Below, one piece after another: positions 1,616-28,683 of a stretch of 64,000 nt of DNA. This DNA is from Pseudomonadota bacterium. Its GTDB lineage: Bacteria; Pseudomonadota; Gammaproteobacteria; Steroidobacterales; Steroidobacteraceae. The notes beneath the pieces were generated by a model. The model was not told where the DNA came from. It made no database searches and was given only the letters and a program-made list of their open reading frames with translations. Numbering within the stretch: position 1 is the stretch's first letter; each line of letters starts with the position of its first letter. The translations under genes were made by a program, and so were the position numbers. Location: contig JBDTPN010000007.1 in the NCBI GenBank assembly GCA_039932715.1, positions 19,503 through 83,502 of the forward strand, given 5' to 3'.

Positions 1616-3853
1616 ATGTGGCAGATCGGTGCGATTGGCTGCCTGATGGGCATAACTCTACTGGCTGGCTGCGGCTCCGGTACAGGGGGCGGTGACCCGG
1701 CAACGCCTGCGCCACCCACACCGACGCCGCCTATATCGGGTCTGGATGCGCGACCGTTGAGCACCAGCTGCCTCGCAGGCGAAGCCCCAGACAGTGCAGT
1801 TGCAATTGCAACCACGCGTGTGTTCCCCAGCCTGCCTGCCTTCAACTCGCCAGTGCTGATGTTGCAGGAGCCGGCCAGCAGCGCGCGTTGGTACGTGGTG
1901 CAGAAGACCGGCATCGTCTACCAGTTCGACAACCAGCCCAACGTGGCGACGCGCCGTGAATTCATCAACGCCAGCGCGTTGATCGCGACGGACCCCAGCA
2001 ATCCGAATGACGAACGCGGACTGTTGGGCATGGCGTTTCACCCGGACTATCCGGGCAACCCCAGGGTTTACCTGTCGTACACGGCCAACGCAGGTGGTGC
2101 GGTGTCGCGCGTGGTGGAGTTCCAGACGCGCGATGGTGGACAGACCCTGGACACCAGCTCTGCGGTGGTGATCCTGCAGACCTATCAACCCGAATCCAAT
2201 CACAACGGTGGCAACATCGCGTTTGGTCCTGATGGCTTCATGTACATCGGGCTGGGGGACGGTGGTGGCGGCGGCGATCAGCATGGAACCATCGGCAACG
2301 GCCAGCGCCTGTCCACGTTGCTGGGCAAGATGCTGCGCATCGACGTCAATGGCAGCACGGGCTCCGCGCACTATGCCATTCCAGCCGGCAATCCCTACGC
2401 CGGAAATCCGGTATGCACGGGGGATACGGGTGCATTCACTCAGATTTGTCCGGAAATCTACGCCTATGGTTTGCGCAATCCGTGGCGCTGGAGCTTTGAT
2501 CAGGGCAGTGGCGAATTGTGGGCGGGCGACGTGGGGCAGGGTGCCTGGGAAGAGGTCGACAAGATTGTGTCCGGGGGCAACTACGGCTGGCGTTGCGGTG
2601 AAGGGGCCCATGCATACAACGGCATTTGCGGAGCCAATGCAGCGGCCGCGCTTGAACCGATTGCCGAATACAGCCACACACAGGGCATTTCGATCACCGG
2701 CGGTTACGTCTACCGCGGCAATGCCATACCTGCGCTGGTGGGTCGGTACGTGTTTGGTGATTTTGGCTCCGGTCGCATCTGGCATGTTGCGCGGGATACG
2801 CCGCCCACGTTGCAGGTCACTTCCGGGTTCGGCAGTGGGCTAAGCATTGCCTCCTTTGCACAGGACCATTCTGGAGAGATGTACGTAGTCAATTTCTCTG
2901 GCACGCTCTATCAGCTGACTGCCGCAGGCGCCAGTGGACGCGTTATTCCGACCCAGCTTTCAGCCACCGGCTGCGCAGCTGCCGGCAATGCATCGCAGCC
3001 TGCAGGAGGAATGATTACATACGCACCCAACGCTGCCTTCTGGTCCGACAGTGCGCTCAAGACGCGTTTTCTGGCGCTGCCGGATGGGCAGAAGATCAAC
3101 ATCAATACTGATGCAGACTTCGAGTTTCCCGCCGGCAGCGTACTGCGTAAGGATTTCCGCCTCGATGGCCGGTTGGTCGAAACCCGGCTGTTCATGCGCC
3201 ACAACAATGGGGATTGGGCGGGCTACACCTACGAGTGGAATACCGGGCAGACAGATGCCACGCGGGTAGTGGGCGGCAAGACAGTGCAGATAGGCAGCCA
3301 GCAATGGCTGTTTCCCAGCGAGGCGCAGTGCCTCATCTGTCATACCAGCGCGGCGGGGCGAACGCTGGGGCTCGAGACTGCGCAGCTCAATGGACTGCTG
3401 AACTATACGCAAACCGGGCGCACGGCCAACCAGCTGGATACGCTCAATGCGATTGGAGCGTTGACGCCCGCGCTGACGCAGCCGGTGGACCAGCTGCCGT
3501 CACTGCCGGATCCGTACGCAACAGCGGGCACCGTGGCATCCAGGGCGCGCGCCTGGCTGCACGTCAACTGTTCCAATTGCCATCGTCCCGGAGGCGGAAC
3601 GCCAGTCAATCTGGATCTGCGTTACACCACCGCGCTTGCCAGCACCAATGCCTGCGAGGTGGCCCCGGTCAATGATCTGGGGGTGGTGAATGCGCGGTTG
3701 ATTGCTGTGGGCGCGGCCGCGCGCTCACTCATCGCGGTGCGTCCATTACGCACCGACAGCAGTTCGATGCCGCCGCTTCAGCCGCGGGTGGTGGATGTGG
3801 CAGGCATTGCCTTGCTCAACAGCTGGATCAACGGTCTGACCAGCTGCAACTGA
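1616..3853 (+). CDS. Lipoprotein: PQQ-dependent sugar (glucose/sorbosone-type) dehydrogenase beta-propeller fused to a C-terminal dihaem c-type cytochrome domain
   Basis: Lipobox LLAGC (Cys19). Signatures of the soluble PQQ dehydrogenase family: GLLGMAFHPDY, HNGGNIAFGPDGFMYIGLGDGG, YAYGLRNPWRWSFD, ITGGYVYRG. The C-terminal ~280 aa carry two CXXCH motifs (CLICH nt 3329-3343, CSNCH nt 3569-3583) and resemble the SO2930/TIGR03806-type dihaem domain from memory. Confidence 0.75.
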   Translation: MWQIGAIGCLMGITLLAGCGSGTGGGDPATPAPPTPTPPISGLDARPLSTSCLAGEAPDSAVAIATTRVFPSLPAFNSPVLMLQEPASSARWYVVQKTGIVYQFDNQPNVATRREFINASALIATDPSNPNDERGLLGMAFHPDYPGNPRVYLSYTANAGGAVSRVVEFQTRDGGQTLDTSSAVVILQTYQPESNHNGGNIAFGPDGFMYIGLGDGGGGGDQHGTIGNGQRLSTLLGKMLRIDVNGSTGSAHYAIPAGNPYAGNPVCTGDTGAFTQICPEIYAYGLRNPWRWSFDQGSGELWAGDVGQGAWEEVDKIVSGGNYGWRCGEGAHAYNGICGANAAAALEPIAEYSHTQGISITGGYVYRGNAIPALVGRYVFGDFGSGRIWHVARDTPPTLQVTSGFGSGLSIASFAQDHSGEMYVVNFSGTLYQLTAAGASGRVIPTQLSATGCAAAGNASQPAGGMITYAPNAAFWSDSALKTRFLALPDGQKININTDADFEFPAGSVLRKDFRLDGRLVETRLFMRHNNGDWAGYTYEWNTGQTDATRVVGGKTVQIGSQQWLFPSEAQCLICHTSAAGRTLGLETAQLNGLLNYTQTGRTANQLDTLNAIGALTPALTQPVDQLPSLPDPYATAGTVASRARAWLHVNCSNCHRPGGGTPVNLDLRYTTALASTNACEVAPVNDLGVVNARLIAVGAAARSLIAVRPLRTDSSSMPPLQPRVVDVAGIALLNSWINGLTSCN

Positions 3854-3854
3854 T

Positions 3855-4253
3855 TTACTTGAGCGTCGCCATGTAGGCGATTACGTCGGCGCGTTCCTTG
3901 TCGTCAGGCAGCATCATGGGCATGACAGTGCCGGGCACTTTCTGCATGGGCATGGTCAGGAATTCGCTCAGCGTCTTGGGATTCCAGGTGAGCCCGGACT
4001 TCTTGAGCGCTTCGGAATACATGGCGAATCCTGGCACGCTGGCGGCCTTGCGGCCCAAAATGCCGACCATATTGGGGCCGGCCACGGGGCCAGACGGATC
4101 CTTGTTCACGGCATGGCAGATGCCACAGCGCTGCGTGAAAATCAGATTGCCGTTTTCCACGTCAGCTTTGTCGCCGGCTGCCATTGCAGAAACGCTGGCC
4201 AGCAGCACTGCGGAAACGGTGATCGCGGACCGGGAAATTCTCATCAGGGACAT
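3855..4253 (-). CDS. Periplasmic class I c-type cytochrome (monohaem)
   Basis: Start placed at ATG 4253 (GGAG 7 nt upstream), giving the signal peptide MSLMRISRSAITVSAVLLASVSAMA. One CGICH haem motif and a distal Met-rich segment (MPMM). The track ORF extends to 4319. Confidence 0.8.
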   Translation of the reverse strand: MSLMRISRSAITVSAVLLASVSAMAAGDKADVENGNLIFTQRCGICHAVNKDPSGPVAGPNMVGILGRKAASVPGFAMYSEALKKSGLTWNPKTLSEFLTMPMQKVPGTVMPMMLPDDKERADVIAYMATLK

Positions 4254-4315
4254 GAACGGACTCCGTGTGTCTGTGGCAATGGTGGCTGCGAAACCATGAA
4301 CGCGGGCTGAAGAGT

Positions 4316-6046
4316 TCACTGTGCAGCGCGCGGATCGTAACTGATCGCGCGATCGACGTGACCCCTGGTTGCGCAGTCGGCGCTGGCGGGGCCGCGCACC
4401 AGATACCAGTCATCTCCCGCCGAGTCCCCCACCGCCTGCCGGCTGGCGGACCCTTCAAAACAGGGATGCAGGGATGACTTGGGAACCAGCAGCACGCGAT
4501 CCGCAGCGGCGTCCAGCCAGGCAGAGGCGTCGTAGCCTTCCAGAGGTCCTTCCAGCCAGCGGCGGTGCCCGAAATTGACCGTTGGTCGCTCCAGGTAAAG
4601 CAAAAACTGTTCCTTGTAAGCCACCAGCGCCAGCAGTTCCCCAGGTCGCAGCTTTGCCTGTACTTCGTGCATGAACGCAGCGCCCGAGCGCTCAGGATTC
4701 ATCGCCGGGGAAATCGCATAGGAAAAAGTGATGGCCAATGCTGCTGTTGCGGCCAGCCAGGCGGCGATGGGCTTGCGCCACAAGGCCGCGCCGACCCCCG
4801 CCAGGGAAAGCGCAAGGAACAGGTACAGCGGCCACCCACTGCCGAGATTAGCGTCCTGGATGGCCTTGCGCGCGAAGTGCGCGCCGCTGAGCAGGGCACC
4901 GGCGAATACCACCGCGCCGATGATCAGCAAACCTGCCAGAGCGACGCTGAGCCGTTGCACGCTGCGGCGCTGGTATAGCACCACGAGAAAAGGCGTCGCC
5001 GCCAGCGCCAGGGCGGGCAAGGCGGGGTTCATGTAGATGCTGCGCTTTCCCGGTGTGAGCGAAAAGAACAGCAGCAGCAGCAGCAACCATCCCAAGGGCA
5101 GCCATACACGGGCGTCGCGGGCCCGCCACGCATCCCGCCATCGGGGCACCAACCAGAACAGCAGCAGGCTCCACGGCAACCACAACGCGGGGATTACCTG
5201 GACCAGAAAGTAGTGCCATGGCTGATGGTGATGCCAGGCGGCTGCGTACCGGGTAACGGTCTGATGAAAAAGTATTTCGTCGCGATAGGCGGTGTAGGCG
5301 GGATTTCCCTTTGAGGCCACCGTCAGGAGCATGGGTACGAACCACAGGAAAATGCCCAGCAGCATGGCCAGTGGCGCAAGTGCCCAACGCCAGCCGCCCG
5401 GGGTAATCGGCGCCAGTCCCTGCCATTTGAAATGCCGCATCGGCCAGTAAAGCAGCAGCACCAGTATCGGCAGGAATCCCACGCCCTTGGTGATCACACC
5501 CAGTCCTGCCGCAAAGCCGCCCAGGAAATACCAACCCCACGCGGGTCCCCACAACAGGTGTCTCAGGAGCGAGTACAACGACAGCGTCGTCAACAGGCAC
5601 AGCGTGGCGTCAATCTGTGCAGAGCGCATGGTGGTCAGGAACTGCACGGTGCAGGACAGCGTCAGTGCTGCAAGCAGACCAGCCTGTCGTCCCGACAGGC
5701 GCCGCCCCATGTCATACACCAGGAACAGGACACCAGCGGCAGACAGCAGCGAGGGGATCAGGAATGACCAGCGCACGCTGCCGATCACTTCATATGCGGC
5801 GGCCAGCATCCAGAAATACAGCGGCGGTTTGTCCTGGTAGAGGTCACCGCCTATGCGCGGGAACAGCCATTCGCCTCCCATGGCCATGTCGCGCGCCAGC
5901 GCGGCGAAGCGTGGTTCGTCAGCCGGCCAGGGTTCGCGCACCCCGATGCCGGTGGCGACCAGCAGCAACAGCGCTGCAATCAGCCACAGCACGTCGCTGC
6001 GACGAATGGCTTCGAATGGACTGCCAGCCCGGGGGTTATCAAACAC
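4316..6046 (-). CDS. Glycosyltransferase family 39 (ArnT / PMT-like polyprenyl-phosphate-sugar dependent membrane glycosyltransferase)
   Basis: Polytopic membrane protein with N-terminal DEPRFAALARDM...YQDKPPLYFW, matching the ArnT/PMT periplasmic-loop signature. The GTG start overlaps the upstream LAB_N stop by 8 nt. An alternative internal GTG start is possible. Confidence 0.8.
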   Translation of the reverse strand: MFDNPRAGSPFEAIRRSDVLWLIAALLLLVATGIGVREPWPADEPRFAALARDMAMGGEWLFPRIGGDLYQDKPPLYFWMLAAAYEVIGSVRWSFLIPSLLSAAGVLFLVYDMGRRLSGRQAGLLAALTLSCTVQFLTTMRSAQIDATLCLLTTLSLYSLLRHLLWGPAWGWYFLGGFAAGLGVITKGVGFLPILVLLLYWPMRHFKWQGLAPITPGGWRWALAPLAMLLGIFLWFVPMLLTVASKGNPAYTAYRDEILFHQTVTRYAAAWHHHQPWHYFLVQVIPALWLPWSLLLFWLVPRWRDAWRARDARVWLPLGWLLLLLLFFSLTPGKRSIYMNPALPALALAATPFLVVLYQRRSVQRLSVALAGLLIIGAVVFAGALLSGAHFARKAIQDANLGSGWPLYLFLALSLAGVGAALWRKPIAAWLAATAALAITFSYAISPAMNPERSGAAFMHEVQAKLRPGELLALVAYKEQFLLYLERPTVNFGHRRWLEGPLEGYDASAWLDAAADRVLLVPKSSLHPCFEGSASRQAVGDSAGDDWYLVRGPASADCATRGHVDRAISYDPRAAQ

Positions 6047-6359
6047 TGGAGTTGCCAGGAACTGACTGGCGCCGGTGGCGTATATCCATCACAAGGTTGT
6101 AGAAGGCCACGGTGGTGGGAAACAGGTTGGAGAGTATTCCCACCGAGTCGTTCTTGCCCCATATGAAATAGGACGCCAGCATGGCGCTGCCCACCAGGCT
6201 CATGATCCAGAAGGCGCGCGGAATCGTAGGTTTTCCCTGGCGACGCGTAGCCAGCATCTGCACCAGCCAGCGGCCGGTAAACATCAGCATCCCGCCATAG
6301 CCGATCAGTTTCCAGGGGGTGATGACGACGCCAAAGGCGTTGAGGATGACGTCGTTCAT
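6039..6359 (-). CDS. Small membrane protein with lipid-A-disaccharide-synthase N-terminal (LAB_N) domain
   Basis: 106 aa, three hydrophobic segments. The motif RWLVQMLATRRQGKPTIPRAFWIMSLVGSAMLASYFIWGKNDSVGI is typical of LAB_N. It starts 1 nt after the GT2 stop. Confidence 0.75.
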   Translation of the reverse strand: MNDVILNAFGVVITPWKLIGYGGMLMFTGRWLVQMLATRRQGKPTIPRAFWIMSLVGSAMLASYFIWGKNDSVGILSNLFPTTVAFYNLVMDIRHRRQSVPGNSSV

Positions 6360-6360
6360 T

Positions 6361-7134
6361 TCATTCCTCGGTGGAGGTGAGACCGGGTCGGTAACGCCGC
6401 CGCAGCCACATCACTCCAAAGATATCGACGATGCCCACCCACAGGCGGTCGAACATTCCGTACTTCGAAACGCCGCGTTCGCGTGACCGGTGGCCCACGG
6501 GCACGGAAATGACCCGATTGCCGCGGCGTTGGAACAACGCCGGCATGAAGCGATGCATGTGATCGAAGTAGGGCAGGTCGAGGAACGCCGCGCGCGAAAA
6601 AAGCTTGATGCCGCAGCCCGTATCGGGTGTGCCGTCGCCCAGCATCCATCCACGCACGCCATTGGCGATGCGCGATTGCATGCGCCGGAAACCGGTGTCC
6701 TTGCGAGTGGTGCGGTTGCCCATGAACAGCAGTACGCTGGCATTGGCCGGATCCTCCCGCGCCGCCAGCAATCTCGGGATATCGGCCGGATCGTTCTGCC
6801 CATCGCCGTCGAGCGTTGCGATCCAGGTGCCGCGCGCGGCGCGAACGCCGGTGGCAACGGCAGCGCTTTGCCCCGAGCGCCGCGAGTGCCGCAGTATGCG
6901 CAAGGTATTCATGCCTTCAATGCGCAGGCGCTGCAGCTGGGCCACCGTGTCGTCGGTGCTGCCATCGTCCACGAACAGCATTTCGTAACTGCGACCCTGC
7001 AATGCGGCGGCGATTTCGCGCGCCAGGGGCGCGACGTTTTCCGCCTCGTTGCAGACAGGGACAACAACGGAGAGTTCGCTCACTACATCCCCAAAGGGGC
7101 GCAGGATACCATCGGCAGGCCCAAGGCTGACCAT
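6361..7134 (-). CDS. Glycosyltransferase family 2 (ArnC / polyprenyl-phosphate glycosyltransferase-like)
   Basis: LSVVVPVCNEAENV ... LFVDDGSTDDT ... DGDGQNDP are GT2 DxD-type motifs. ATG 7134 lies only 18 nt from the divergent LpxL-like start. An alternative GTG at 7083 is preceded by GGGGA. Confidence 0.85.
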   Translation of the reverse strand: MVSLGPADGILRPFGDVVSELSVVVPVCNEAENVAPLAREIAAALQGRSYEMLFVDDGSTDDTVAQLQRLRIEGMNTLRILRHSRRSGQSAAVATGVRAARGTWIATLDGDGQNDPADIPRLLAAREDPANASVLLFMGNRTTRKDTGFRRMQSRIANGVRGWMLGDGTPDTGCGIKLFSRAAFLDLPYFDHMHRFMPALFQRRGNRVISVPVGHRSRERGVSKYGMFDRLWVGIVDIFGVMWLRRRYRPGLTSTEE

Positions 7135-7152
7135 CCGGTAAGATCAGGGCGC

Positions 7153-8037
7153 ATGGAAATCAATCCCGAGTCCCCCCTGGTACCGTTTTGGCTGCGCAGC
7201 CTGTCGCGGTTGCCCTTGCCTTTGCTCTATGGACTGGCTGGCCTGCTGATATTCGTGGCCCACCGGCTGCTGCGCATGAAACTAGGCGTGATTCGCCAGA
7301 ACATCGGGGCGTGTTTCCCACAACTGACGCCGCGCGAACGGGCGCGCATGGTGGCGGGACATTACCGCCAGATCGGGCAGATGATTGCCGAGGTCATCAA
7401 GGGCGCCACCCTGTCGCGCCAGTCGTTCATGGATCGCGTGCGCATGCGCAATCTAGCGTTACCGCAAGGGCTGTTGGCACAGGGTCGGCCCGTGTTGCTG
7501 GTGGCCGCGCACCAGGGCAACTGGGAGTGGGTGTTGCAGGCATTGGCGCTGCAGCTGGGGTATCCGCTGGACGTGGGCTACAAACCCATCAAGAGCCCAT
7601 GGGCCGAAAACGCGATGAATGCCATTCGCCGGCGCTTCGGTGCGCACCTGGTGCCTGCCAAGCAATTGCTGGCGGACATGCTCAAGCGACGCAACATCGT
7701 GCGCGGCATAGCGATGCTGGCCGACCAGGAGCCCACCACCAGCGATCACAAGCATTGGGTGACGTTCCTTGGGCGTGATACTGCGTTCTACATGGGGCCC
7801 GAGCAGATGGCCCGCGCGGCGCGTTACGCGGCGGTGTTCGTGGCACTGCGCCGCACCGCGCGTGGCCACTACGAGATCGAGTTCCTGGAGCTGGCCGCCA
7901 CTGGTGAACAGATGGCGCCGGGGGAATTCACTGCGCGCTATGCGCGACTGGTAGAGAAGGAAATACTCGCGGCACCCACGGACTGGACGTGGGGACACCG
8001 CAGGTGGAAGCTTAAACGAGGCGTGTACGCGAGCTGA
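7153..8037 (+). CDS. Lipid A biosynthesis (LpxL/HtrB/LpxXL-family) acyltransferase
   Basis: Start at ATG 7153 (MEINPESPLVPFWLRSLSRLP...). N-terminal membrane anchor, HQGNWE catalytic motif and overall Lip_A_acyltrans layout. The 6490-7152 part of the track ORF is antisense to the GT2 gene. Confidence 0.8.
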   Translation: MEINPESPLVPFWLRSLSRLPLPLLYGLAGLLIFVAHRLLRMKLGVIRQNIGACFPQLTPRERARMVAGHYRQIGQMIAEVIKGATLSRQSFMDRVRMRNLALPQGLLAQGRPVLLVAAHQGNWEWVLQALALQLGYPLDVGYKPIKSPWAENAMNAIRRRFGAHLVPAKQLLADMLKRRNIVRGIAMLADQEPTTSDHKHWVTFLGRDTAFYMGPEQMARAARYAAVFVALRRTARGHYEIEFLELAATGEQMAPGEFTARYARLVEKEILAAPTDWTWGHRRWKLKRGVYAS

Positions 8038-8051
8038 ATCGCGCGATCAGC
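8033..8051. terminator. Imperfect palindrome between convergent genes (possible bidirectional terminator hairpin)
   Basis: gctgaatcgc/gcgat-cagc is a palindrome with one bulge. It straddles the LpxL-like stop (8035-8037) and is followed by a T-rich stretch (cttttccttta). There is no clean U-tract, so this is weak. Confidence 0.3.
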
Positions 8052-8063
8052 CAGGCTTTTCCT

Positions 8064-10034
8064 TTATCCGGCCTGCGCCAATTTTGCTGACAGGTGTTTG
8101 GCCAGATCCGCCACGGTGGGGTGATCGAACAGCTCGGTGAGATCAATGTGCCCCGGGTATTCACGATCCACCTGCTCATGAATCTCGATGAGCTTGAGCG
8201 AGCTGGCACCGATCTCGAACAGGTTGTCGCTGGGCCCGATCTGCCTGGCCGCCAGCACGCCGTTGCAGATGCGCAGCAACCGCGATTCGATGGAATCCGC
8301 CGCGACACTTGCACCCGGCTGCAGGCCGCCGCTGTGCTTCGAGACTTCGGCAAGATCCTCTGCGAACTCACCGTCGAGAAAGTTCTGCTCTAGCAGATGA
8401 CGCTGGATCTTGCCGCTGGTGGTCTTGGGGATGCGCTTCACTGGCACCACCTGCGCGACTTCGAGGCCTGCCTGCTCGTTGACCAGGCGCGTGATCTGCG
8501 CTGCCAGCGCGGGGAATTGCGCCAGGTCACCGCGATAGAGCGCGAACACGGTCAACTGGTCGGTTTCGGCGCCTGGCGGGCGTACGCCGGCCACTACTAT
8601 CTTGCCCAGCTCCATACCGTCGGCGCGTTGCGCGATGGCTTCAAGATCGTGCGGGTAGTAGTTCTGGCCGTTGACGAAGAGGATCTCCTTGGCGCGACCG
8701 GTGATGTAGGTTTCGCCATCGAGCATCAATCCAAGGTCGCCGGTCTTGAGCCAGCCGTCAGCGGTAAATGTCTCGGCATTGGCCGCGGGTTCTTCGAAAT
8801 AGCCAGCTGTGACGTTGTCGCCGCGAATGTGGATGTGTCCCACATGGCCATCGGCCAGCGGCGCGTCGTCGTTATCGGTGATGCGCAGTTCGCACAGTGG
8901 GATGGCCTTGCCCACGCTGACCAGGCCCAGTGCATCGCGGCCTGCGTCAGGTAGCACCTCGGCGCGGTCGCCGATCCCGACCTTGTGCCGGTTGAGCTGG
9001 ATGATGCGCAGCGGTCGCCCCACAGGCGGAAAGCTCACAGCCAGCGAGGCTTCGGCCAGTCCATAGACCGGATACATGGCATTGCGCCTGAGACCCAGTC
9101 CGTTGAGCCGCGCCAGGAATTCCTCGCAAAGCTCCACGGAGATGGGCTCGGCCCCGTTGAAGATCAGCCGCACGCTTGAGAGGTCGAGATTGCCCGGCGA
9201 ACGATCTCCCAGCACCTTGAGGAAATGCCGGTAGCCGAAATTGGGTGAGCACAGGATGGTCGCGCGCTGCTGCGCGGCGATCTGCAGCCACAGCAAGGGA
9301 CGTCGCACGAACAGCTCGGTGGGCATCAGGTTCATGTGCACGCGATTGGCGAACATGATCAGGTGAAAGCCGATAAGACCCATGTCATGCGTCAATGGCA
9401 TCCACGACAGGCTCACGTCGTTTTCGTTGAAGCCGCCCACCTGCGTGGAGCCGATCCAGTTGGCTATCAGGTTGGCGTGCGTGAGCACCACGCCCTTGGG
9501 GTCGCTGGTAGATCCGGAAGAAAACTGGATGAACGCGGTGTCTTGCGGTTGCGCCGGGTGAGGCACGCCCTCGCGGCTGATGTCCTTGAGGTCATCGACC
9601 AGGAAGGCGCGCTGGCGCAGTGTCGCGAACGTCGCCGCTTCGTCAGCCTCTGCTGACTGCGTGGCGAACTGGCCCACGCGATCCAGCGTCTTGCGATCGC
9701 TGTATATGAAAGGTTTGCCCAGCTTGCGCGCGATACGCAGCAACTTGTGCCGGTGTTCGTCGCTGATGCCGATGGCTACCGGCACCGGCACGATGCCACC
9801 CAGCACTGCGCCCCAGAAGGCATCAATGAACTGCTCGTTGTTATTGAGCAGCAGGATCATGCGGTCCCCGGGCCTGGCACCCAGTTGCTGCAGATGATGC
9901 AGGATGCCCAGTGCCCGATCATGCATCTGGCCGTAGGTCACGCGACGCGATTCGTTTTCGCCACTGTGGTAGACGATGGCGCGATCCGCGCTGCGGTGCT
10001 GCGCCATCAGTTCATTGAGCGTGCGGGCTTGCAT
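8064..10034 (-). CDS. Fatty-acyl-AMP ligase (FAAL) fused to a C-terminal acyl/peptidyl carrier domain
   Basis: Adenylation motifs FSSGSTSDPKGVVLTH, YGLAE, GDLG and KIQR. C-terminal ~80 aa carry the carrier-protein signature LFEIGASSLKLIEI (phosphopantetheine Ser). The ATG at 10034 is 2 nt after the P450 stop. Confidence 0.85.
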   Translation of the reverse strand: MQARTLNELMAQHRSADRAIVYHSGENESRRVTYGQMHDRALGILHHLQQLGARPGDRMILLLNNNEQFIDAFWGAVLGGIVPVPVAIGISDEHRHKLLRIARKLGKPFIYSDRKTLDRVGQFATQSAEADEAATFATLRQRAFLVDDLKDISREGVPHPAQPQDTAFIQFSSGSTSDPKGVVLTHANLIANWIGSTQVGGFNENDVSLSWMPLTHDMGLIGFHLIMFANRVHMNLMPTELFVRRPLLWLQIAAQQRATILCSPNFGYRHFLKVLGDRSPGNLDLSSVRLIFNGAEPISVELCEEFLARLNGLGLRRNAMYPVYGLAEASLAVSFPPVGRPLRIIQLNRHKVGIGDRAEVLPDAGRDALGLVSVGKAIPLCELRITDNDDAPLADGHVGHIHIRGDNVTAGYFEEPAANAETFTADGWLKTGDLGLMLDGETYITGRAKEILFVNGQNYYPHDLEAIAQRADGMELGKIVVAGVRPPGAETDQLTVFALYRGDLAQFPALAAQITRLVNEQAGLEVAQVVPVKRIPKTTSGKIQRHLLEQNFLDGEFAEDLAEVSKHSGGLQPGASVAADSIESRLLRICNGVLAARQIGPSDNLFEIGASSLKLIEIHEQVDREYPGHIDLTELFDHPTVADLAKHLSAKLAQAG

Positions 10035-10036
10035 GG

Positions 10037-11371
10037 CTATTGACTACCGGTGCGGGATTCGAGCCGCATGATAAACGGTCTGGTGGCCCGCAGATTGATC
10101 AACGCCTCGAAGTGCACCGGTTCCTGGTCGACGCGGCGCAGCCGGAAGCGGCGTGCAAAGCGGTTGAGGTGCACCAGCATCTCGAAGATCGCCAGGGTCT
10201 CGCCGATGCAGTGATGTGCGCCGGCGGAAAACGGCAGATAGGTCAGTTTCGGACGCGCTTCGTCATCCTTCACGAACCGGTCCGGGTTGAACGCTTCCGG
10301 GTCGGTCCAGAAATCCGGGTGCCGGTGCACGAAGTAGGGGCTGAAGAACACGTCGGTGCCCGGTGGTACGATGTAGCCGCCCAGTGTGTCCGCCTCGATG
10401 GTCTTGCGCGAGATCACCCACACGGGCGGATACAGGCGCATGGCTTCGCGGATCACCTTGTTGGAATAGGGCAGTGCCTCCATCTCCTGCAGTGTCGGCA
10501 CTGCAACCTCCGCCGCTGCATCGATCTCGGCGTGCAGCTTGGCTTCCACATCCGCATGCTCGCCCAGCAGGTGCCAGGTCCAGGCCAGCGCACTGGCCGT
10601 TGTTTCATGGCCGGCCACGATCAGCGTGGTGATTTCGTCGACGATTTCCTTGTCGGTCATGCCAGCGCCGGTTTCCTTGTCACGCGCATTGAGCAGCATG
10701 GAAACGTAATCAGGGCTGTCGCCGGCAGACAGGGCACCTTCGGGCCCGCTGCCGGCCGCGCGCCGTCGCGCTACACACACCGCGATCATTGCCGCCAGTT
10801 TGCGAAAGCGGTAGGCAAAACGTAGGTCGCGCGCGGATTCCTGCGTCAACACTGCGAATGGATTTTCGCCTGCTTCCCTGGCCATGACATCCATGTCATC
10901 ACCGAAGATGGCGCGCAGGACAATCTCCAGCGTCATCTCGCTCATGTCGTCGGTGACATTGACCGGTTCGCCGCGGGCGCACTTGTCCTGCCAGGCTGCC
11001 AGCAACCGATCGTTGGCCTGCGCGATGCTGCGGTCGAACTGCGCCAGGATGCGGCGATGAAAGGTCGGTTGCATCATGCGCCGCTGGCGCTTCCAGAATT
11101 CACCCTCGCTGACTATGATCCCATTGCCCAGCAGGATCTTGATCCGGTCGAAACCCACACCCTTGGCGTAGTTGCGGTGGTTGCTGATCAGGATGCGCCG
11201 CACATCGTCGGGGTGGTTGAATACCCAGGTGTGCGATTGCCGGCCCGGGGCATAGACGCGATAGGCGTCGCCGTGCCGGGCGTATATCTCCCGCATGCGG
11301 TCCAGCGAGTCAGGCGTGGAGCCGATGTCGAAGCGTTGCTCGGATTCTGGGGGAAGGGGAGTCTCGGTCAT
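10037..11371 (-). CDS. Cytochrome P450
   Basis: Cys-haem ligand loop FSAGAHHCIGETLA, I-helix AGHETT and the EALRL/ExxR region. Start taken at ATG 11371. Alternatives are TTG 11398 or ATG 11296. Confidence 0.85.
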   Translation of the reverse strand: MTETPLPPESEQRFDIGSTPDSLDRMREIYARHGDAYRVYAPGRQSHTWVFNHPDDVRRILISNHRNYAKGVGFDRIKILLGNGIIVSEGEFWKRQRRMMQPTFHRRILAQFDRSIAQANDRLLAAWQDKCARGEPVNVTDDMSEMTLEIVLRAIFGDDMDVMAREAGENPFAVLTQESARDLRFAYRFRKLAAMIAVCVARRRAAGSGPEGALSAGDSPDYVSMLLNARDKETGAGMTDKEIVDEITTLIVAGHETTASALAWTWHLLGEHADVEAKLHAEIDAAAEVAVPTLQEMEALPYSNKVIREAMRLYPPVWVISRKTIEADTLGGYIVPPGTDVFFSPYFVHRHPDFWTDPEAFNPDRFVKDDEARPKLTYLPFSAGAHHCIGETLAIFEMLVHLNRFARRFRLRRVDQEPVHFEALINLRATRPFIMRLESRTGSQ

Positions 11372-12095
11372 GGATCCGGAAATGGTAGCGCAACCCAAGG
11401 TGTCACGGCGCCGGCTGACTCCAATGCGCCGCTTGATCTATCGCCTTGCCGCGCCAGCAGGCCTTGCGGTGCTGCGCAGCTGGTGGCGCAGCTGCCGCAT
11501 CGTCAGTGTGGTGGGAGCGGAGCACCTGGACGCAGCGCTGGCGCAGTGGCCCTCACTGCTGCCCTGCTATTGGCACCAGCATGAACTGTTCTGCGCGCGC
11601 TACCTGCTGTTGCAGATGCCGCGCGGATTGAAGCTGGGTTTTCTGGTCAGCCCTTCGGTGGACGGTGAAGTGCCGGCCATGATCGCAACACGACTGGGCG
11701 CCAGGGTGATCCGCGGATCTTCCACACATACTGGCGCACGGGCGCTGCGCGATTATTACCAGCTGCTGGTCAAGGACCAGGTTTCGCCTGTGATAACGCC
11801 GGATGGTCCTTCGGGGCCGCGGTTCAGGTTCAAGCCGGGGGCCATCATGCTGGCCCAGATCTCTGGCAGACCCATGTTGCCCATGGCGTACGCGGCTTCG
11901 AGCGCGTGGCTGGTGGCCTGGGACAAATTCGTCATCCCGCGGCCCTTTTCCCGGATTGCGATTGCCATCGGCCAGCCGGTGAGTGTGACGCGGGATTTCC
12001 CCATCAGCGATGAGGCGGCGCTGCAGGCGTTGCAGGCCCAAATGGAGCGGGCGCTGCACGAGCAGTTCCAGCGGGCAAAGGCAGCGTTGGGGTGA
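11370..12095 (+). CDS. DUF374-family protein (lysophospholipid-acyltransferase-like fold)
   Basis: ATG 11370 is preceded by AAGGGGAG with an 8-nt spacer. Sequence SPSVDGE...RGSSTHTGARAL...ITPDGPSGPRFRFKPGAIMLAQISGRPMLP matches DUF374 as I remember it. Confidence 0.7.
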   Translation: MDPEMVAQPKVSRRRLTPMRRLIYRLAAPAGLAVLRSWWRSCRIVSVVGAEHLDAALAQWPSLLPCYWHQHELFCARYLLLQMPRGLKLGFLVSPSVDGEVPAMIATRLGARVIRGSSTHTGARALRDYYQLLVKDQVSPVITPDGPSGPRFRFKPGAIMLAQISGRPMLPMAYAASSAWLVAWDKFVIPRPFSRIAIAIGQPVSVTRDFPISDEAALQALQAQMERALHEQFQRAKAALG

Positions 12096-12252
12096 ATTTC
12101 TCCATATTTGCTAGATAGTTGGCTGCTATTCTTTACATATCATGCAAGAATCGTCATTGACAGAATCCGCTAACAAACTGTGGCGGTGTTCGTAGCGCAG
12201 TTAAGTGACGCAAGCTCAGACTTGGGACCCGAACAGGGGAAATCATCGGTAA
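12096..12252 (+). promoter_or_regulatory. AT-rich intergenic region, probable promoter/leader of the GAF-PAS-GGDEF-EAL gene
   Basis: This is the only long (157 nt), visibly AT-rich non-coding stretch in the window. It contains TTGACA (12157-12162) and TATCAT (12138-12143), but no properly spaced -35/-10 pair that I can defend. Confidence 0.25.
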
Positions 12253-14922
12253 ATGTCGTCGACCCGTCCCATCAACCAGGTGGACCACACCGCTTCAGAC
12301 GTACTGGCTGTTCACAGCTGGACGGGATCAGCGGGCGGGTTGAATGTTGCCTGCACCAAGGCCGCGGTCGACCTGCAGAACATCACGCCCAAGAACCGCC
12401 TGTCATGCATCGAAGCCAGCCTCGCAACCCTGCGTGAAGTGTCGGGTGCCGATGCCGCATTTCTGGCCATGCTCGACGCACCCGGTCTGGCGTTTGATGA
12501 GATCACCATGGCGCAACTTTCCGGGGTGTCCTGCAGACCCGAGGCCCTGAGTGGGATTGCGTTGGCCGACCTGCCATTCCTGGCATCGCGCTTCGAACAT
12601 CTGCGGCTCACCGAATATCGCGATACCGCCGCGCCGCGCCGCGAACTGCCCGCAGAGGCGCAGCGCCTGGCGCAACTGGGTATCGCCTCGGCGCTGTTGC
12701 TGGCATTTCATATCGAGAGTCGTCCGGCTGGCATCGTGGTGATATTGCGCTCTGTGGTGCGCGGTCCCTGGGATGTCAACGTGCAGTTGTTGCTCAAGCT
12801 CATCGGCACCAGCATGGCCAGCGGACTGGAGCGCCTGTCGATCTGCGCGCGCCTTGCGGAAATCGAGGAGCGCGATGCGCTGGCCGATGCGGCCGCCAAT
12901 GATGGATTGTGGGATTTCAATTTCGACACCAATGAGCTTTACCTCTCGCCGCGCTGGAAGGCGATGCTGGGCTATGAGGACACCGGCCCCACCGGCGTAA
13001 TCGACTGGCGCGGCCTGGTGCATCCCGACGACCTGTCGCGCGTGCAGGACTCCATCCAGAAGCATGTTTCCGGCGCCGCGCCGCTGTTCGACAGCGTGCA
13101 CCGCATGCGCCACTGCAATGGCGAATACCGCTGGGTGATCAGCCGCGCCAAGGGCAAGATCGACAAGCAGGGGCGGTTGCAGCGGCTGGTGGGTGTTGAG
13201 CTCGACATCACCGAGCGCAAGCTGTACGAGGAAGCGCTGTTCAGGGAAAAGGAAAGCGCGCAGATCACGCTGCAGTCCATCGGTGATGGCGTCATCACCA
13301 CCGACGCCGATTCGATCATCGATTACATCAACCCGGTGGCGGAAACGCTGTCGGGCTGGCGCCTCGAAGACGCCATGGGGCGTAACGTGGACGAAGTGTT
13401 CCGCGCCTTCCACGAGGAGACCTGCGAACCGCTGGAAAATCCGCTGACCGGTTCGATTCGCCGTGAACGCCCCATCAAGGCATCGCGACCCATGCTGATG
13501 ATCCGTCGCGACGGCAACGAGCTGTACGTGGAAAGTACGGCGGCACCGATACGTGACGGTCACGGGAACATTTGCGGAGCGGTGCTGGTGTTCCATGACG
13601 TCAGCGAAAGCCGGGAGCTCAATCGCAAACTGTCCTATCACGCCAGCCATGATCTGCTGACGGGGCTGGTCAATCGACGCGAATTCGAGGGTCGCGTCGA
13701 GCGTTGCCAGCAAAGTGCCAAGGCCAAGGAAGGTTCCTACGCGCTGTGCCACCTCGACATTGACCAGTTCAAGATGATCAACGATTCGTGCGGTCACACG
13801 GCGGGCGATGCACTGCTGGGACAGATTGGCGCGTTGCTCAAGTCCAAGGTGCGCTGGCGCGACACCCTGTCGCGCATCGGTGGCGACGAATTCGGCATCC
13901 TGCTGGAAAACTGCACGCTGGAAGAAGCGCTGCGTACGGCCGAGGTGCTGCGTGAGGCGGTGCGTAATTTCCGGTTTGTCTGGGAAGAACGGGTGTTCAA
14001 GCTGGGCGCCAGCATCGGCGTAGTGCCGATCACCGCCGACAACGAGGATGTGGCGTCCATACTCTCGGCGGCAGAGGGCGCTTGCGCGGCAGCCAAGGAG
14101 CAGGGGCGCAACCGCGTGCACAGCTTCGCCGAAAACGACATTGAACTGATGCGACGGCGCCGCGAAACGCAGTGGGCCGCGCGCATCAGCGCCGCGCTGG
14201 ACGAAGGCCGGTTCGAGCTTTACCGCATGCCCATCATGCCGCTGCAGGGTCAGATCGAGGGCGAGCACTACGAGATCCTGCTGCGCATGCGCGATGAGGC
14301 GGGCAAGATCGTGACGCCGGACCATTTCATTTCCGCTGCCGAGCGCTACAACATCACCCCCAACATCGATCGCTGGGTAATCGAAAACACGCTGCGTTGG
14401 CTGGTATCGGAAGCCGATGAGCGTGAACGCCTGACACTGTGCGCGATCAACCTCTCGGGGCAGAGCCTCGGCGACGACAAGTTCCTGCCCTTTGTGATCG
14501 AGCAGTTCCAGAAGAGCGGGCTGGACCCGCGCAAGATCTGCTTTGAAATCACGGAGACCTCGGCCATTGCCAGCTTCTCCCAGGCCAATCGCTTCATCAA
14601 TTCGCTCAAGGACCTGGGCTGCCGGTTCGCGCTCGACGATTTCGGCACCGGCCTGTCGTCGTTCGGATATCTCAAGCATTTCCCGGTGGATTTCCTCAAA
14701 ATTGACGGCAGCTTCGTGCGCGGCATCCTGACCGATCCCATAGACCGTGAAATGGTGCGCTCCATCAACGAAATCGGCCACCTGACCGGCAAGCTGGTGA
14801 TCGCCGAGTTTGCGGAGAACGAGGAGATCATTCAGGCCCTGCGCGGGCTGGGCGTGGATTACGCACAGGGTTATGGCATCGCGCAGCCCAGTCGCCTCAG
14901 CAAGAATCCTTCGCCTGTCTAA
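12253..14922 (+). CDS. GAF-PAS-PAS-GGDEF-EAL cyclic-di-GMP signalling protein
   Basis: Two PAS cores (NDGLWDFNFDTNELYLSPRW..., IGDGVITTDADSIIDYINP...). GGDEF domain with RIGGDEFGILL. EAL domain with EILLRMRD, DDFGTG and QGYGI. Confidence 0.9.
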   Translation: MSSTRPINQVDHTASDVLAVHSWTGSAGGLNVACTKAAVDLQNITPKNRLSCIEASLATLREVSGADAAFLAMLDAPGLAFDEITMAQLSGVSCRPEALSGIALADLPFLASRFEHLRLTEYRDTAAPRRELPAEAQRLAQLGIASALLLAFHIESRPAGIVVILRSVVRGPWDVNVQLLLKLIGTSMASGLERLSICARLAEIEERDALADAAANDGLWDFNFDTNELYLSPRWKAMLGYEDTGPTGVIDWRGLVHPDDLSRVQDSIQKHVSGAAPLFDSVHRMRHCNGEYRWVISRAKGKIDKQGRLQRLVGVELDITERKLYEEALFREKESAQITLQSIGDGVITTDADSIIDYINPVAETLSGWRLEDAMGRNVDEVFRAFHEETCEPLENPLTGSIRRERPIKASRPMLMIRRDGNELYVESTAAPIRDGHGNICGAVLVFHDVSESRELNRKLSYHASHDLLTGLVNRREFEGRVERCQQSAKAKEGSYALCHLDIDQFKMINDSCGHTAGDALLGQIGALLKSKVRWRDTLSRIGGDEFGILLENCTLEEALRTAEVLREAVRNFRFVWEERVFKLGASIGVVPITADNEDVASILSAAEGACAAAKEQGRNRVHSFAENDIELMRRRRETQWAARISAALDEGRFELYRMPIMPLQGQIEGEHYEILLRMRDEAGKIVTPDHFISAAERYNITPNIDRWVIENTLRWLVSEADERERLTLCAINLSGQSLGDDKFLPFVIEQFQKSGLDPRKICFEITETSAIASFSQANRFINSLKDLGCRFALDDFGTGLSSFGYLKHFPVDFLKIDGSFVRGILTDPIDREMVRSINEIGHLTGKLVIAEFAENEEIIQALRGLGVDYAQGYGIAQPSRLSKNPSPV

Positions 14923-26757: not shown

Positions 26758-28683
26758 ATGTCGTCAGACTCGTCGGAACTCTTTGGACATAGCGCCAGAA
26801 ATTTTCCGCCGCAACACAATATCGTGGACATAACAGCCAACCCAAAGCGCGGGCGAAACAGACCATTCGCCGGGTTCATGCAGTCAATCGGGCTGGGGCC
26901 GGGCCGTGGCGGCGGAACCAGAAAATCCATCGACAGCCGCGCAATGGAAGTGACCTGTCGCCAGATCATCGAGCTGACCGGCGATGGCGTGCTGATCATC
27001 AGCACTGATGGCAAGCAGATATTGGATGCCAACACTGCCATCCAGAAACTCTCAGGCAAGAATATCGAGCAGTTGCGTACAGTGGCCCTGCAGGGCTTGT
27101 TCCAAATGGGCGAAGCGGCGGACCGCCTGGCCTTTGCACAATTGCTGATCGGTGGCGCAACCCTGACGGTCGAAGTGACGGTGTCCGTCCCTGAGGGCGA
27201 TCCGCGCGCTGTTGAAATCAGCCGGATCGAGGTCGACCTTCCCAACCGGCAAATGCTGGGGCTGGTGGTGCGCGACCTGAGCCTGCGCAAGAAAGCGGAA
27301 TCGAACCTGCTGGCCAAGCAGAAGCATCTTGATAAGCTGGCACACCACGACCAGCTGACCGGCCTGCCCAACCGCGTTTTCCTGCAGGCGCATCTGCCCA
27401 AGGCCATCGAGCGCGCCACCGCAGAAAAAACCCTGATGGGCGTGCTGTTCCTGGACCTGGACCGCTTCAAGCATGTCAACGATTCGCTGGGCCATGAGGT
27501 AGGCGACAAGCTGCTGCAGGAAATCGCCAAGCGCGTGCGCACGGCCGTACGCCCGGATGACGTAGTCGTGCGCATGGGCGGCGACGAGTTTGTGGTGCTG
27601 CTGCACAGCGCACGATCGTATGACGAGATCAACAGCGCGGCCAACCGCATCAACACGGTGCTGGGCAGTCCGGTGGTGATCGACGGCCGGGCAGTGGTGG
27701 CCACGGTCAGCATTGGTGTCAGTGTGTTTCCGCGCGACGGCGCCACCATGGGTGAGCTGCTCAAGCATTCGGATACCGCGATGTACCAGGCCAAGGATTC
27801 CGGCCGCAACAATTTCCAGGTCTTCAGTCCCAAGATGGACCAGCAGATCAAGCGGCGCGTGGCCATAGAGAGTGCGCTGCGCACGGCGTTGAAACTCGGT
27901 CAGCTCGAGGTGCACTACCAGCCGGTGATCGAGATTGCGACCAAGAAACTGGCGGGAATGGAAGCGCTGCTGCGCTGGAAACATCCCACTCAGGGCTACA
28001 TTGCGCCGGCCAGCTTCGTGGAAGTGGCCGAGGATTCGGGGCTGATCCTGCCTATCGGGCAATTCGTCCTGGATCGAGTCACTGACGACATCGCGGACTG
28101 GCGCAAGCGCAAGCGCAAGCTGGTGCCGATAGCGGTCAACATCTCGGCCGTGCAGCTGGAGCGCACCAAACTGCACGATGTCATTCGCACCGCGCTGGCA
28201 AAACACGACATCCCTCCGAATCTGCTGCAGCTGGAGCTCACCGAGAGCTCGCTATTTGAAAAGCGTACTGGTGAATTCCGCGGGGACGCGCTGGAAAGCC
28301 TGCGCGACCTGGGTGTTAAGATTGTCATCGACGATTTCGGCACCGGCTATTCCAGCTTGCAATATCTAAAGCGCTGGCATGTCGATGCGCTCAAGATCGA
28401 CCGCGGGTTCGTCGCCGACATTGTCACCGATCCATCGGACTTCGCCATCGTCAGTGCCATCATTGCAATGGCGCGCAGCCTCAAGATCCAGGTGGTCGCC
28501 GAAGGCATAGAAGGCTGGCAGCAGCTGGAGATGCTGCGTAGCATGGGGTGCCACATGGCACAGGGTTTCCTGTTTGCCGCACCGGTTCCCGCTGAACAGG
28601 CCATCCGGTTCCTCAAGGCCGATGATGCGGATGGCGCCGGCGAGCTGACCATGCTTTTGTCACTGGCCAATACCGGTACCTGA
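26758..28683 (+). CDS. PAS-GGDEF-EAL cyclic-di-GMP signalling protein
   Basis: PAS core (IIELTGDGVLIISTDGKQILDAN), GGDEF (RMGGDEFVVLL), EAL (EALLRWKHP, DDFGTGYSSL, QGFLF). The true start may be an internal ATG because the first ~40 codons are atypically AT-rich. Confidence 0.9.
   Translation: MSSDSSELFGHSARNFPPQHNIVDITANPKRGRNRPFAGFMQSIGLGPGRGGGTRKSIDSRAMEVTCRQIIELTGDGVLIISTDGKQILDANTAIQKLSGKNIEQLRTVALQGLFQMGEAADRLAFAQLLIGGATLTVEVTVSVPEGDPRAVEISRIEVDLPNRQMLGLVVRDLSLRKKAESNLLAKQKHLDKLAHHDQLTGLPNRVFLQAHLPKAIERATAEKTLMGVLFLDLDRFKHVNDSLGHEVGDKLLQEIAKRVRTAVRPDDVVVRMGGDEFVVLLHSARSYDEINSAANRINTVLGSPVVIDGRAVVATVSIGVSVFPRDGATMGELLKHSDTAMYQAKDSGRNNFQVFSPKMDQQIKRRVAIESALRTALKLGQLEVHYQPVIEIATKKLAGMEALLRWKHPTQGYIAPASFVEVAEDSGLILPIGQFVLDRVTDDIADWRKRKRKLVPIAVNISAVQLERTKLHDVIRTALAKHDIPPNLLQLELTESSLFEKRTGEFRGDALESLRDLGVKIVIDDFGTGYSSLQYLKRWHVDALKIDRGFVADIVTDPSDFAIVSAIIAMARSLKIQVVAEGIEGWQQLEMLRSMGCHMAQGFLFAAPVPAEQAIRFLKADDADGAGELTMLLSLANTGT

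Follow-up and report, generated by a model that had tools for sequence, protein, structure and literature searches.

What brings together, side by side in a Steroidobacteraceae genome, a cytochrome P450 gene, a gene for a fatty-acyl-AMP ligase (FAAL) with a carrier domain of its own, genes for two different kinds of lipid A-type acyltransferase, and a small glycosyltransferase operon? The question is raised by an island of seven genes on contig JBDTPN010000007.1 (assembly GCA_039932715.1), within a stretch of 64,000 nucleotides that was analysed as a whole and that we call the window. Comparison with related loci indicates that the conserved core is a P450 gene followed by the FAAL-carrier gene, facing a gene of the DUF374 or LpxJ family, often with a phosphopantetheinyl transferase (PPTase) gene between them. 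The GT2/LAB_N/GT39 module is a facultative neighbour of this core, found on either side of it or swapped for a non-orthologous set, so that the island appears to consist of two co-located modules for the tailoring of envelope lipids. As to what the core does, the reading that we favour, at a probability of roughly one half, is that it would provide an acyl thioester, oxidised by the P450 and held on a private carrier independently of fatty-acid synthase (FAS), which LpxJ- and LpxL-type enzymes would then put on lipid A. The seven genes are given here with their scores in a Pfam profile search:

4316 to 6046, minus strand: PMT_2/PMT (GT39) protein, an ArnT-like GT-C glycosyltransferase, 71.6 bits
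6039 to 6359, minus strand: LAB_N, a stand-alone small membrane protein, 70.4 bits
6361 to 7134, minus strand: Glycos_transf_2 (GT2) protein, ArnC-like, 94.5 bits
7153 to 8037, plus strand: Lip_A_acyltrans protein, LpxL-like, 122 bits over profile positions 21-294 of 295
8064 to 10034, minus strand: FAAL-type AMP-binding protein with a PP-binding domain, 196 bits and 43.5 bits
10037 to 11371, minus strand: cytochrome P450 (p450), 263 bits
about 11370 to 12095, plus strand: DUF374 (PF04028) protein of the LpxJ family, 64.3 bits against a cut-off of 26.8

All seven matches lie well over the curated cut-offs, and the search agrees with the first-pass annotation of this DNA on the open reading frames (ORFs), their coordinates, and their domain identities. 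The spacings it had given were recovered as well, with a 1-nt gap between GT2 and LAB_N, an 8-nt overlap between LAB_N and GT39, and a 2-nt gap between the P450 stop and the FAAL start, and the three motifs that it had named (HQGNWE, FSAGAHHCIG, and GASSL) were located at the positions given below. Its remark that no FAS, 3-deoxy-D-manno-oct-2-ulosonic acid (Kdo), or core Raetz-pathway genes are interleaved also holds within the island. The LpxL-like and FAAL genes converge on a spacer of 26 nt.

In the lipid A reading, the FAAL-type enzyme would adenylate a free carboxylic acid, probably a fatty acid of medium or long chain, and would load it as a thioester on its own phosphopantetheinylated carrier, bypassing both fatty-acid synthesis and AcpP. 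The translationally coupled P450 would oxidise the chain, most likely by hydroxylation, acting either before the acid is loaded or once it is carrier-bound. The adjacent LpxJ/DUF374 enzyme and the distinct LpxL-like enzyme would take the acyl group from the carrier and, working at the inner face of the inner membrane, attach it to lipid A to form a secondary (acyloxyacyl) chain. In the second module, and separately, the ArnC-like GT2 would make a polyprenyl-phosphate sugar, LAB_N (or GtrA in other genomes) would be a candidate flippase or partner, and the ArnT-like GT39 would move the sugar to lipid A or the inner core on the periplasmic side. The nature of the acid, the chemistry and timing of its oxidation, the hand-off from carrier to acyltransferase, and lipid A as the acceptor are the steps of this scheme that we infer from the sequences.

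To place the island among its relatives, one genome per species was scanned, which yielded at least 498 proteins related to the FAAL-carrier protein; the top 80 (63-92% identity) all come from Steroidobacteraceae-type metagenome-assembled genomes (MAGs). A scan of metagenomes yielded at least 547 relatives, and 80 further loci were added. An out-group was reached through P450 representatives at 41-52% identity and through FAAL relatives below 58% identity. Loci were taken as ±10 kb around the FAAL relatives, 178 in all (cited below by L numbers), and hidden Markov models made from the analysis's own sequences were run on the six-frame ORFs of every locus. We call a locus in-group when its FAAL shares at least 58% identity with that of the window and out-group when it falls below 58%; denominators vary with the number of loci that have adequate flanks.

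The first-pass annotation had presented the seven genes as one set, a view that this neighbourhood survey does not bear out, since the full arrangement was seen nowhere but in the window and in its 92%-identical relative L005. What recurs is the core. The P450 gene lies immediately 5' of the FAAL gene in 114 of 116 in-group and 24 of 32 out-group loci, the two genes overlapping by up to 8 nt or standing up to 29 nt apart across all lineages that have the pair, and a DUF374 gene lies 5' of the P450 in 91/93 in-group loci (within 3.3 kb) and 13/26 out-group loci. At least one late-acyltransferase gene is found in 82 of the 83 in-group loci that could be scored. Within the family, synteny alone is weak evidence, since a GGDEF-EAL neighbour, present in 76/83 in-group loci, is almost as constant as DUF374.

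The out-group provides a control for this, as GGDEF-EAL and nadC, both of them neighbours within the family, have mostly disappeared there (GGDEF is seen in 4/20 out-group loci). Among 20 out-group loci with adequate flanks, 15 hold at least one DUF374 and/or LpxL-like gene, and when the out-group is clustered at 70% FAAL identity, the same is true of 16 of 23 clusters. The DUF374 and LpxL families together typically number about 2-4 genes per genome, and by a rough estimate, not a computed one, the chance of finding a member within ±10 kb would be about 1-2%. The contexts are unrelated to one another: L085 has the pair beside an rRNA operon and, in addition, a PPTase gene with an LpxL-like gene on each side; L086-type loci have GT39-GT2, DUF374, PPTase, P450-FAAL, and two LpxL-like genes beside type IV pilus genes; Salinisphaera-like loci have PPTase, P450-FAAL, and two DUF374 genes; L089 has DUF374 with the P450-FAAL pair, and L090 has DUF374 and PPTase with the pair; L092 has an adjacent LpxL-like gene with sulfite reductase genes nearby; L095 has an LpxL-like gene in the operon of the pair; and a further unrelated setting is that of pncB/thiC. 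Cultured carriers of the cassette are Salinisphaera hydrothermalis, S. orenii, S. aquimarina, and S. dokdonensis. The earlier suggestion that a donor on a private carrier is linked to late acyltransferases thus gains strong comparative support from recurrent co-location, often with a PPTase gene alongside.

In L085 (4079-9557), a Burkholderiales-like contig, the rRNA operon is a full one, with 16S, two tRNAs, 23S, and 5S genes, and lies immediately 5' of the P450-FAAL/carrier genes.

One link to lipid A is made by the DUF374 protein. DUF374 is the LpxJ family, whose enzymes stand in for LpxM without being its orthologues and supply lipid A with its 3' secondary acyl chain; every DUF374 member yet characterised works on lipid A (PMC6148475). 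The activity of R. typhi LpxJ is abolished by mutating W60, H61, D86, D132, W172, and D173 (PMC6148475). In the window protein, YWHQH (11568-11582), SPSVDGE (11649-11669), TPDGPSGP (11796-11819), and AWDKF (11916-11930) match W60/H61, D86, D132, and W172/D173, so that all six essential LpxJ residues are kept, a match made by eye against the mutagenesis-primer motifs and the text of that study (PMC6148475). By direct reading, HX4D/E is absent from the W-H motif, with no His followed by Asp or Glu five residues on. We regard the window DUF374 protein as a member of the LpxJ family, whose enzymes are 3'-secondary acyltransferases of lipid A, and the fact that it keeps the six essential residues strengthens the lipid A reading.

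The proposed donor side depends on the ligase and its carrier. The best NCBIfam model for the FAAL-carrier protein is the FAAL model PRK09192, at 368 bits and under its 600-bit cut-off, and the amino-acid adenylation model gives the same ligase 124 bits. The nearest solved relatives are the McyG A-PCP didomain, the FAALs of Legionella and E. coli, FadD32, FadD28, and FadD23, and the ligase scores far better against these structures than against fatty acyl-CoA ligases. Relative to E. coli FadD it has about 27 extra residues (…RPLRIIQLNRHKVGIGDRAEVLPDAGRDALGLV…), at what we take to be the usual position of the FAAL-specific insertion in the N-terminal domain. The fused carrier domain (8091-8282) is C-terminal and nonribosomal peptide synthetase (NRPS)-like, and it bears the motif GASSL (8196-8210) with the presumed phosphopantetheine Ser at 8199-8201, a Ser motif that is kept in nine diverse homologues. 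A Sfp-type PPTase gene belongs to or adjoins the cassette in 31/93 of the in-group loci and 16/26 of the out-group loci; the in-group PPTase gene is divergent, standing between DUF374 and P450, and there is none in the window's sub-lineage. That a dedicated PPTase is encoded beside the cassette suggests that the carrier domain is in use, and the conserved Ser of the fused PP-binding domain, taken with the adjacent PPTase in relatives, is consistent with acyl transfer to the carrier.

The P450 gene is the first gene of the P450-to-FAAL-carrier operon. Its product has the I-helix sequence AGHETT (10598-10615), which we read as the acid-alcohol pair of an O2-activating monooxygenase, and the heme loop FSAGAHHCIG (10202-10231), with the Cys codon at 10208-10210. 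The closest solved structures are 7WZL, CYP97A/C, CYP3A, CYP46A1, CYP170A1, CYP4B1, and CYP102, and P450s of these kinds include many aliphatic-chain hydroxylases. As an obligatory partner of the ligase, however, the P450 has to be given up, since it is dispensable in some lineages: L105, L111, L120 (8438-13692), L124, L132, L134, and L151 have no P450 gene between PPTase and FAAL. These lineages retain the FAAL-carrier, PPTase, DUF374, two LpxL-like genes, and GT39/GT2, and in L134 the order is PPTase-FAAL-LpxL. The existence of such lineages argues that the P450 is a tailoring step and not part of the core of the cassette.

A single case among the 178 loci has a radical-SAM/SPASM gene in the place of the P450 gene. 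This is L034 (8673-11959; DASTAC010000155.1), from the Steroidobacteraceae MAG SMAG_U725. The best models for the radical-SAM protein are NirJ2 and AhbD, and the stop of its gene overlaps the start of a paralogous FAAL-carrier gene whose product is 65% identical to the window FAAL; the same MAG also has a normal P450 version (L066). The radical-SAM enzyme is possibly an oxygen-independent counterpart of the P450, and its position in the P450 slot hints that such a version of the same step exists.

The second acyltransferase of the island is less easily placed. The LpxL-like protein has an HX4E dyad, HQGNWE (7510-7527), and aligns end to end with Acinetobacter baumannii LpxM (5KN7), HQGNWE lying over HFGTWE; the same motif was also aligned with HFLTLE of E. 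coli LpxL. Its NCBIfam scores are below the respective cut-offs throughout, at 103 against 248 bits for PRK08419, 86 against 298 for LpxL/LpxP, 49 against 336 for LpxM, and 42.5 against 209 for PatA. In a small neighbour-joining tree, which compared the cassette LpxL-like proteins with E. coli LpxL and LpxM, the cassette proteins form their own clade apart from the two E. coli enzymes, with the signature AAH(Q/H/F)xN(W/F)EW. The gene lies directly 3' of the FAAL gene in 29/112 in-group and 10/28 out-group loci, and somewhere in the locus in 43/83 in-group loci. An intact aldehyde dehydrogenase gene adjoins the LpxL-like gene in L002-L022; this was considered as a further cassette partner and set aside as synteny, being present in one in-group clade only and nowhere outside.

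In many Steroidobacteraceae, the LpxL-like gene belongs to an operon with the order Irr-like Fur-family regulator, HlyD adaptor, multidrug-type RND permease, and LpxL-like gene, with a 6-nt gap after the permease gene (L024:12024-17949, also L025, L037, L039, L046, and others; inverted in L026, L062, L126, and L169).

Where does the glycosyltransferase module belong? GT2, probably a synthase of a polyprenyl-phosphate sugar, matches E. coli ArnC along 218 aa at 34% identity (E = 1e-33) and is short, without the ArnC C-terminal segment of about 90 residues. For GT39, the match to E. coli ArnT extends along 324 aa at 28% identity (E = 1e-16), in an alignment that includes WPADEPRFAALARDM...YQDKPP against WQPDETRYAEISREM...YFEKP; the N-terminal ArnT motifs DExR(Y/F)A...R(E/D)M and Y..KP are present, and the only solved homologue found was Cupriavidus ArnT (5EZM). 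Both proteins score below the equivalog cut-offs, GT2 with 99.6 against 529 bits for ArnC and GT39 with 98.5 against 567 bits for ArnT, and the island holds no arnA-, arnB-, or arnD-like genes for the synthesis of 4-amino-4-deoxy-L-arabinose. LAB_N has three predicted helices in a single-sequence AlphaFold2 model of low confidence (pLDDT, the predicted local distance difference test, 65.6), and we presume a kinship with three-helix transporters of the SWEET/PQ-loop kind. We know of no established function for stand-alone LAB_N proteins. In L012-type loci, a GtrA gene stands between GT39b and GT2b, that is, in the slot of LAB_N, and this common slot suggests a GtrA-like role for stand-alone LAB_N, as a candidate flippase or membrane partner. 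The slot pairing is LAB_N 6039-6359 in the window against GtrA at L012:5894-6325 and L002:8792-9208, and in some genomes GtrA alone follows DUF374.

The module itself is mobile with respect to the core. GT39 is present in 17/83 in-group loci. The GT39-LAB_N-GT2 set is in the DUF374 operon in L001, L029, L042, L048, and L077 and on the LpxL side in the window and L005; a non-orthologous GT39b-GtrA-GT2b set is in the DUF374 operon in L007, L008, L012, and L013, and elsewhere the same slot is filled by just GT39b or just GtrA. In the out-group, the L086-type cassette likewise comes with GT39-GT2. L005 has the remains of an aldehyde dehydrogenase gene (12845-13204, 120 residues) between its LpxL-like gene and GT2, a mark of the module's recent insertion at that site; the window has no such remnant. 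GT-C modules have been recruited to the cassette locus several separate times, and the idea of the glycosyltransferase module as a fixed partner gives way to that of a facultative one, exchanged for non-orthologous parts.

Several observations weigh against the lipid A reading. The window has neither a PPTase gene nor a redox partner for the P450, and the closest solved ligases also include loaders of phenylpropanoids and alpha-keto acids, so that a "fatty" substrate is not proven. The LpxL-like gene, which the first-pass annotation had made part of the pathway, does adjoin FAAL in some relatives, but in about 20 loci it is instead the last gene of the Irr-like regulator/HlyD/multidrug-type RND operon, and a separate clade that falls below all curated LpxL, LpxM, and PatA cut-offs could have an acceptor other than lipid A. 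In one betaproteobacterial-type lineage (L121, L122:7937-15423, and L164), the order is a PPTase gene, then P450-FAAL/carrier, a second FAAL (PRK09192, 748 bits), and a serine palmitoyltransferase (NF047599, 571 bits, over its cut-off), with no LpxL-like or DUF374 gene in view, and the cassette there appears to be linked to sphingolipid synthesis. In L091, the pair is coupled to an MFS transporter and a 4HBT (hotdog) thioesterase. With such partners, the donor cassette does not go with lipid A enzymes alone. It might also be that the acyltransferases of a locus are the only late ones of the genome, in which case their adjacency might reflect housekeeping lipid A genes that happen to adjoin an unrelated operon. 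The main rival is one in which the same donor cassette serves another envelope lipid, such as a glycolipid, an aminolipid, a lysophospholipid, or a polyprenyl-linked sugar, with the GT-C enzyme glycosylating that lipid. The position of the LpxL-like clade apart from E. coli LpxL and LpxM, its place in RND-pump operons, and the serine palmitoyltransferase pairing would all fit, and the Lip_A_acyltrans superfamily does contain enzymes that do not act on lipid A, PatA among them. We nevertheless think this rival unlikely, since the DUF374 protein retains every residue essential in LpxJ, in a family whose characterised members all act on lipid A (PMC6148475), two different families of lipid A late acyltransferase recur with the cassette, and the neighbouring glycosyltransferase module is ArnC/ArnT-like.

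Less likely, given the out-group data, and in our view improbable, is mere neighbourhood, in which ordinary lipid A genes would stand beside a P450-FAAL pair that makes a signal, a secondary metabolite, or a sphingolipid precursor. The constancy of GGDEF-EAL within the family speaks for it, as do loci without an acyltransferase in view (L093, L119, L153, and L172) or with the other partners just described, and in S. hydrothermalis the DUF374 gene is 6.7 kb off, behind a glycerol-utilisation insert. What speaks against mere neighbourhood is the reappearance of DUF374 or LpxL-like genes in most out-group clusters, in unrelated contexts and against the low estimate for chance co-location, while GGDEF and nadC are mostly lost; so does a PPTase gene that lies in one operon with DUF374 while facing the P450. 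A further alternative takes its logic from the AlmEFG system of Vibrio, whose order of adenylation, carrier, and LpxL-superfamily transferase the locus shares: a small, non-fatty acid on the carrier would be esterified to a lipid A hydroxyl by the LpxL-family enzyme, altering surface charge or properties. Some solved relatives of the ligase do load non-fatty acids (McyG and a keto-acid A domain), but the ligase is scored far higher by the FAAL model than by the amino-acid adenylation model, it has the FAAL-type insertion, and a P450 of CYP3/4/97/102-like kind fits the oxidation of an aliphatic substrate, so that we give this minor alternative little credence. The least probable of all is a route like that of BioI, a P450 known to act on acyl carrier protein-bound chains, here cleaving a carrier-bound acyl group to a pimeloyl thioester for biotin. 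A bioB gene does lie 5' of one P450-less FAAL-carrier gene (L119), but no bioF, bioA, or bioD was seen among the annotated or inspected genes of the loci, though no search was aimed at them; the aminotransferase of L122 is the serine palmitoyltransferase noted above and not BioF, for which it scores 324 bits, under the cut-off; the name BioI (CYP107H) does not occur in the top 60 matches of the P450 to solved structures, which are of CYP97/3/4/102 kind; and the cassette is functionally intact without a P450 in several lineages. The biotin route was rejected on the P450 kinship and on the identity of the L122 gene.

Returning to an oxidised acyl donor for lipid A as the favoured reading, how does such a system compare with those already known? 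LpxL, LpxM, and LpxJ use acyl-carrier donors, and AcpXL/LpxXL and AlmE/F/G demonstrate that lipid A enzymes of the Lip_A_acyltrans superfamily can use dedicated carriers. The first-pass annotation had known of no characterised pathway with this gene combination, and a search of the literature found none; in the literature searched, which covered few subscription journals, there was no published description of P450-FAAL/carrier genes with LpxJ or LpxL. By its gene content, the system is a member of neither the AlmEFG nor the AcpXL/LpxXL group.

The closest system in logic is AlmE/AlmF/AlmG of Vibrio cholerae, where adenylation, a phosphopantetheinyl carrier, and an LpxL-superfamily transferase acting on lipid A follow one another as they would here. 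AlmE, however, is a DltA-like ligase for an amino acid, its carrier AlmF is a protein of its own, glycine is transferred, and there is no P450, whereas the present loci have a FAAL-type ligase with an insertion, a fused carrier, a P450 and PPTase in the cassette, and LpxJ-family enzymes. The AcpXL/LpxXL system of the Rhizobiales, which installs 27-hydroxyoctacosanoate on lipid A, resembles the proposed route in its private, non-AcpP carrier, its oxygenated chain, its late acyltransferase of the Lip_A_acyltrans family, and its clustered genes. There, dedicated FabF/FabZ-type enzymes build the chain on the carrier and the hydroxyl comes from synthesis; here, a FAAL would load a pre-made acid on a fused NRPS-type carrier, a P450 would oxidise it, and the LpxJ family is the most constant partner. 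No genes for condensing enzymes or dehydratases were found in the island, its flanks, or the annotated relatives.

The LpxJ enzymes of Helicobacter, Campylobacter, Wolinella, and Rickettsia belong to the same Pfam family as the DUF374 protein of the window, which has their six essential residues. The characterised ones are stand-alone housekeeping enzymes that use ordinary acyl-carrier protein donors, and none has been described with a divergent P450/FAAL-carrier/PPTase cassette. The Aas/AasS systems are similar in that a free fatty acid is adenylated and passed via a carrier thioester to an acyltransferase of membrane lipids, independently of the type II FAS, but they use the AcpP carrier, feed phospholipids or general pools, and have no P450, as opposed to the fused private carrier, dedicated PPTase, and partners of lipid A acyltransferase families seen here. 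For the second module, the likeness is to Arn (and to Bordetella Lgm and Francisella Flm), with GT2, a small membrane protein, and a GT-C enzyme in one operon; here, there are no arnA/B/D-type genes, GT2 is without the C-terminal segment of ArnC, and LAB_N or GtrA takes the place of ArnE/F.

The secondary chains of lipid A set outer-membrane permeability, resistance to antimicrobial peptides, and recognition by TLR4 and caspases. To our knowledge, every known late acylation draws on acyl-carrier protein donors made by FAS or, in the Rhizobiales, on AcpXL. If the favoured reading is right, an NRPS-like and FAS-independent donor route with P450 oxidation would be a new principle for the Raetz pathway, and unusual lipid A with hydroxy-, oxo-, or dicarboxy-acyl chains would be expected in a soil family that is abundant but barely cultured. 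It would also provide the first context-based role for stand-alone LAB_N proteins. The presence of the cassette in cultured Salinisphaera makes the hypothesis directly testable, and the P450-less lineages are natural comparators for the contribution of the P450. The serine palmitoyltransferase pairing in one lineage raises the possibility that the cassette may serve outer-membrane lipids more generally. Taken further, and as a speculation that we think improbable, P450-FAAL/carrier-PPTase could be a general cassette for outer-membrane acyl tailoring, one that directs scavenged hydroxylated acids to lipid A and, in one lineage, to a sphingolipid; the hydroxyl added by the P450 would then be a branching point for the second acyltransferase, which most such loci have, or for the ArnT-like GT-C enzyme, giving a branched or glycosylated acyloxyacyl lipid A that would be new to the field.

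The divergent end of the core deserves a closer look, as its gene starts are ambiguous. The ORF starts first listed, a TTG at 11398 for the P450 and an ATG at 11295 for DUF374, would overlap, and the lengths of homologues favour the ATG at 11371 for the P450 and a start at 11370, 11382, or 11424 for DUF374. The P450 ATG on the minus strand and an in-frame DUF374 ATG on the plus strand overlap head to head in GGTCATGGATCC (11369-11372). One of two things must hold here: either the P450 or the DUF374 start lies further in, or the two genes have an extremely compact divergent control region in common. In relatives that retain the PPTase gene, the interval between P450 and DUF374 is about 700 bp. 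A scan of 3800-12400 for sigma-70-like promoters found none, and terminator-like sites in the same interval were not above shuffled expectation, with none in the convergent spacer between the LpxL-like and FAAL genes.

On one flank, the island is followed by a cytochrome c gene (3855-4319, minus strand), a GSDH-family dehydrogenase gene (1616-3853), and a TonB receptor gene; the other flank holds genes for a PAS-GGDEF-EAL protein, nadC, BON, glutaredoxin, RNase T, and pyruvate dehydrogenase. These flanking genes are of housekeeping or sensory kinds, with no relation to the island, and the naming of close homologues agrees with an origin in Steroidobacteraceae. G+C content is flat throughout the region, which suggests a chromosomal locus, unlike a recent import. 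The cytochrome c ORF shares 4 nt with the GT39 stop codon and may be co-transcribed with the GT39 module; in relatives, the gene accompanies the convergent GSDH-family gene and not GT39. Elsewhere in the window, and unrelated to the island, are a second PAS-GGDEF-EAL protein (26758-28683, plus strand) and a fusion of HEAT repeats with a Ser/Thr protein kinase (38998-41433, minus strand) of 811 aa.

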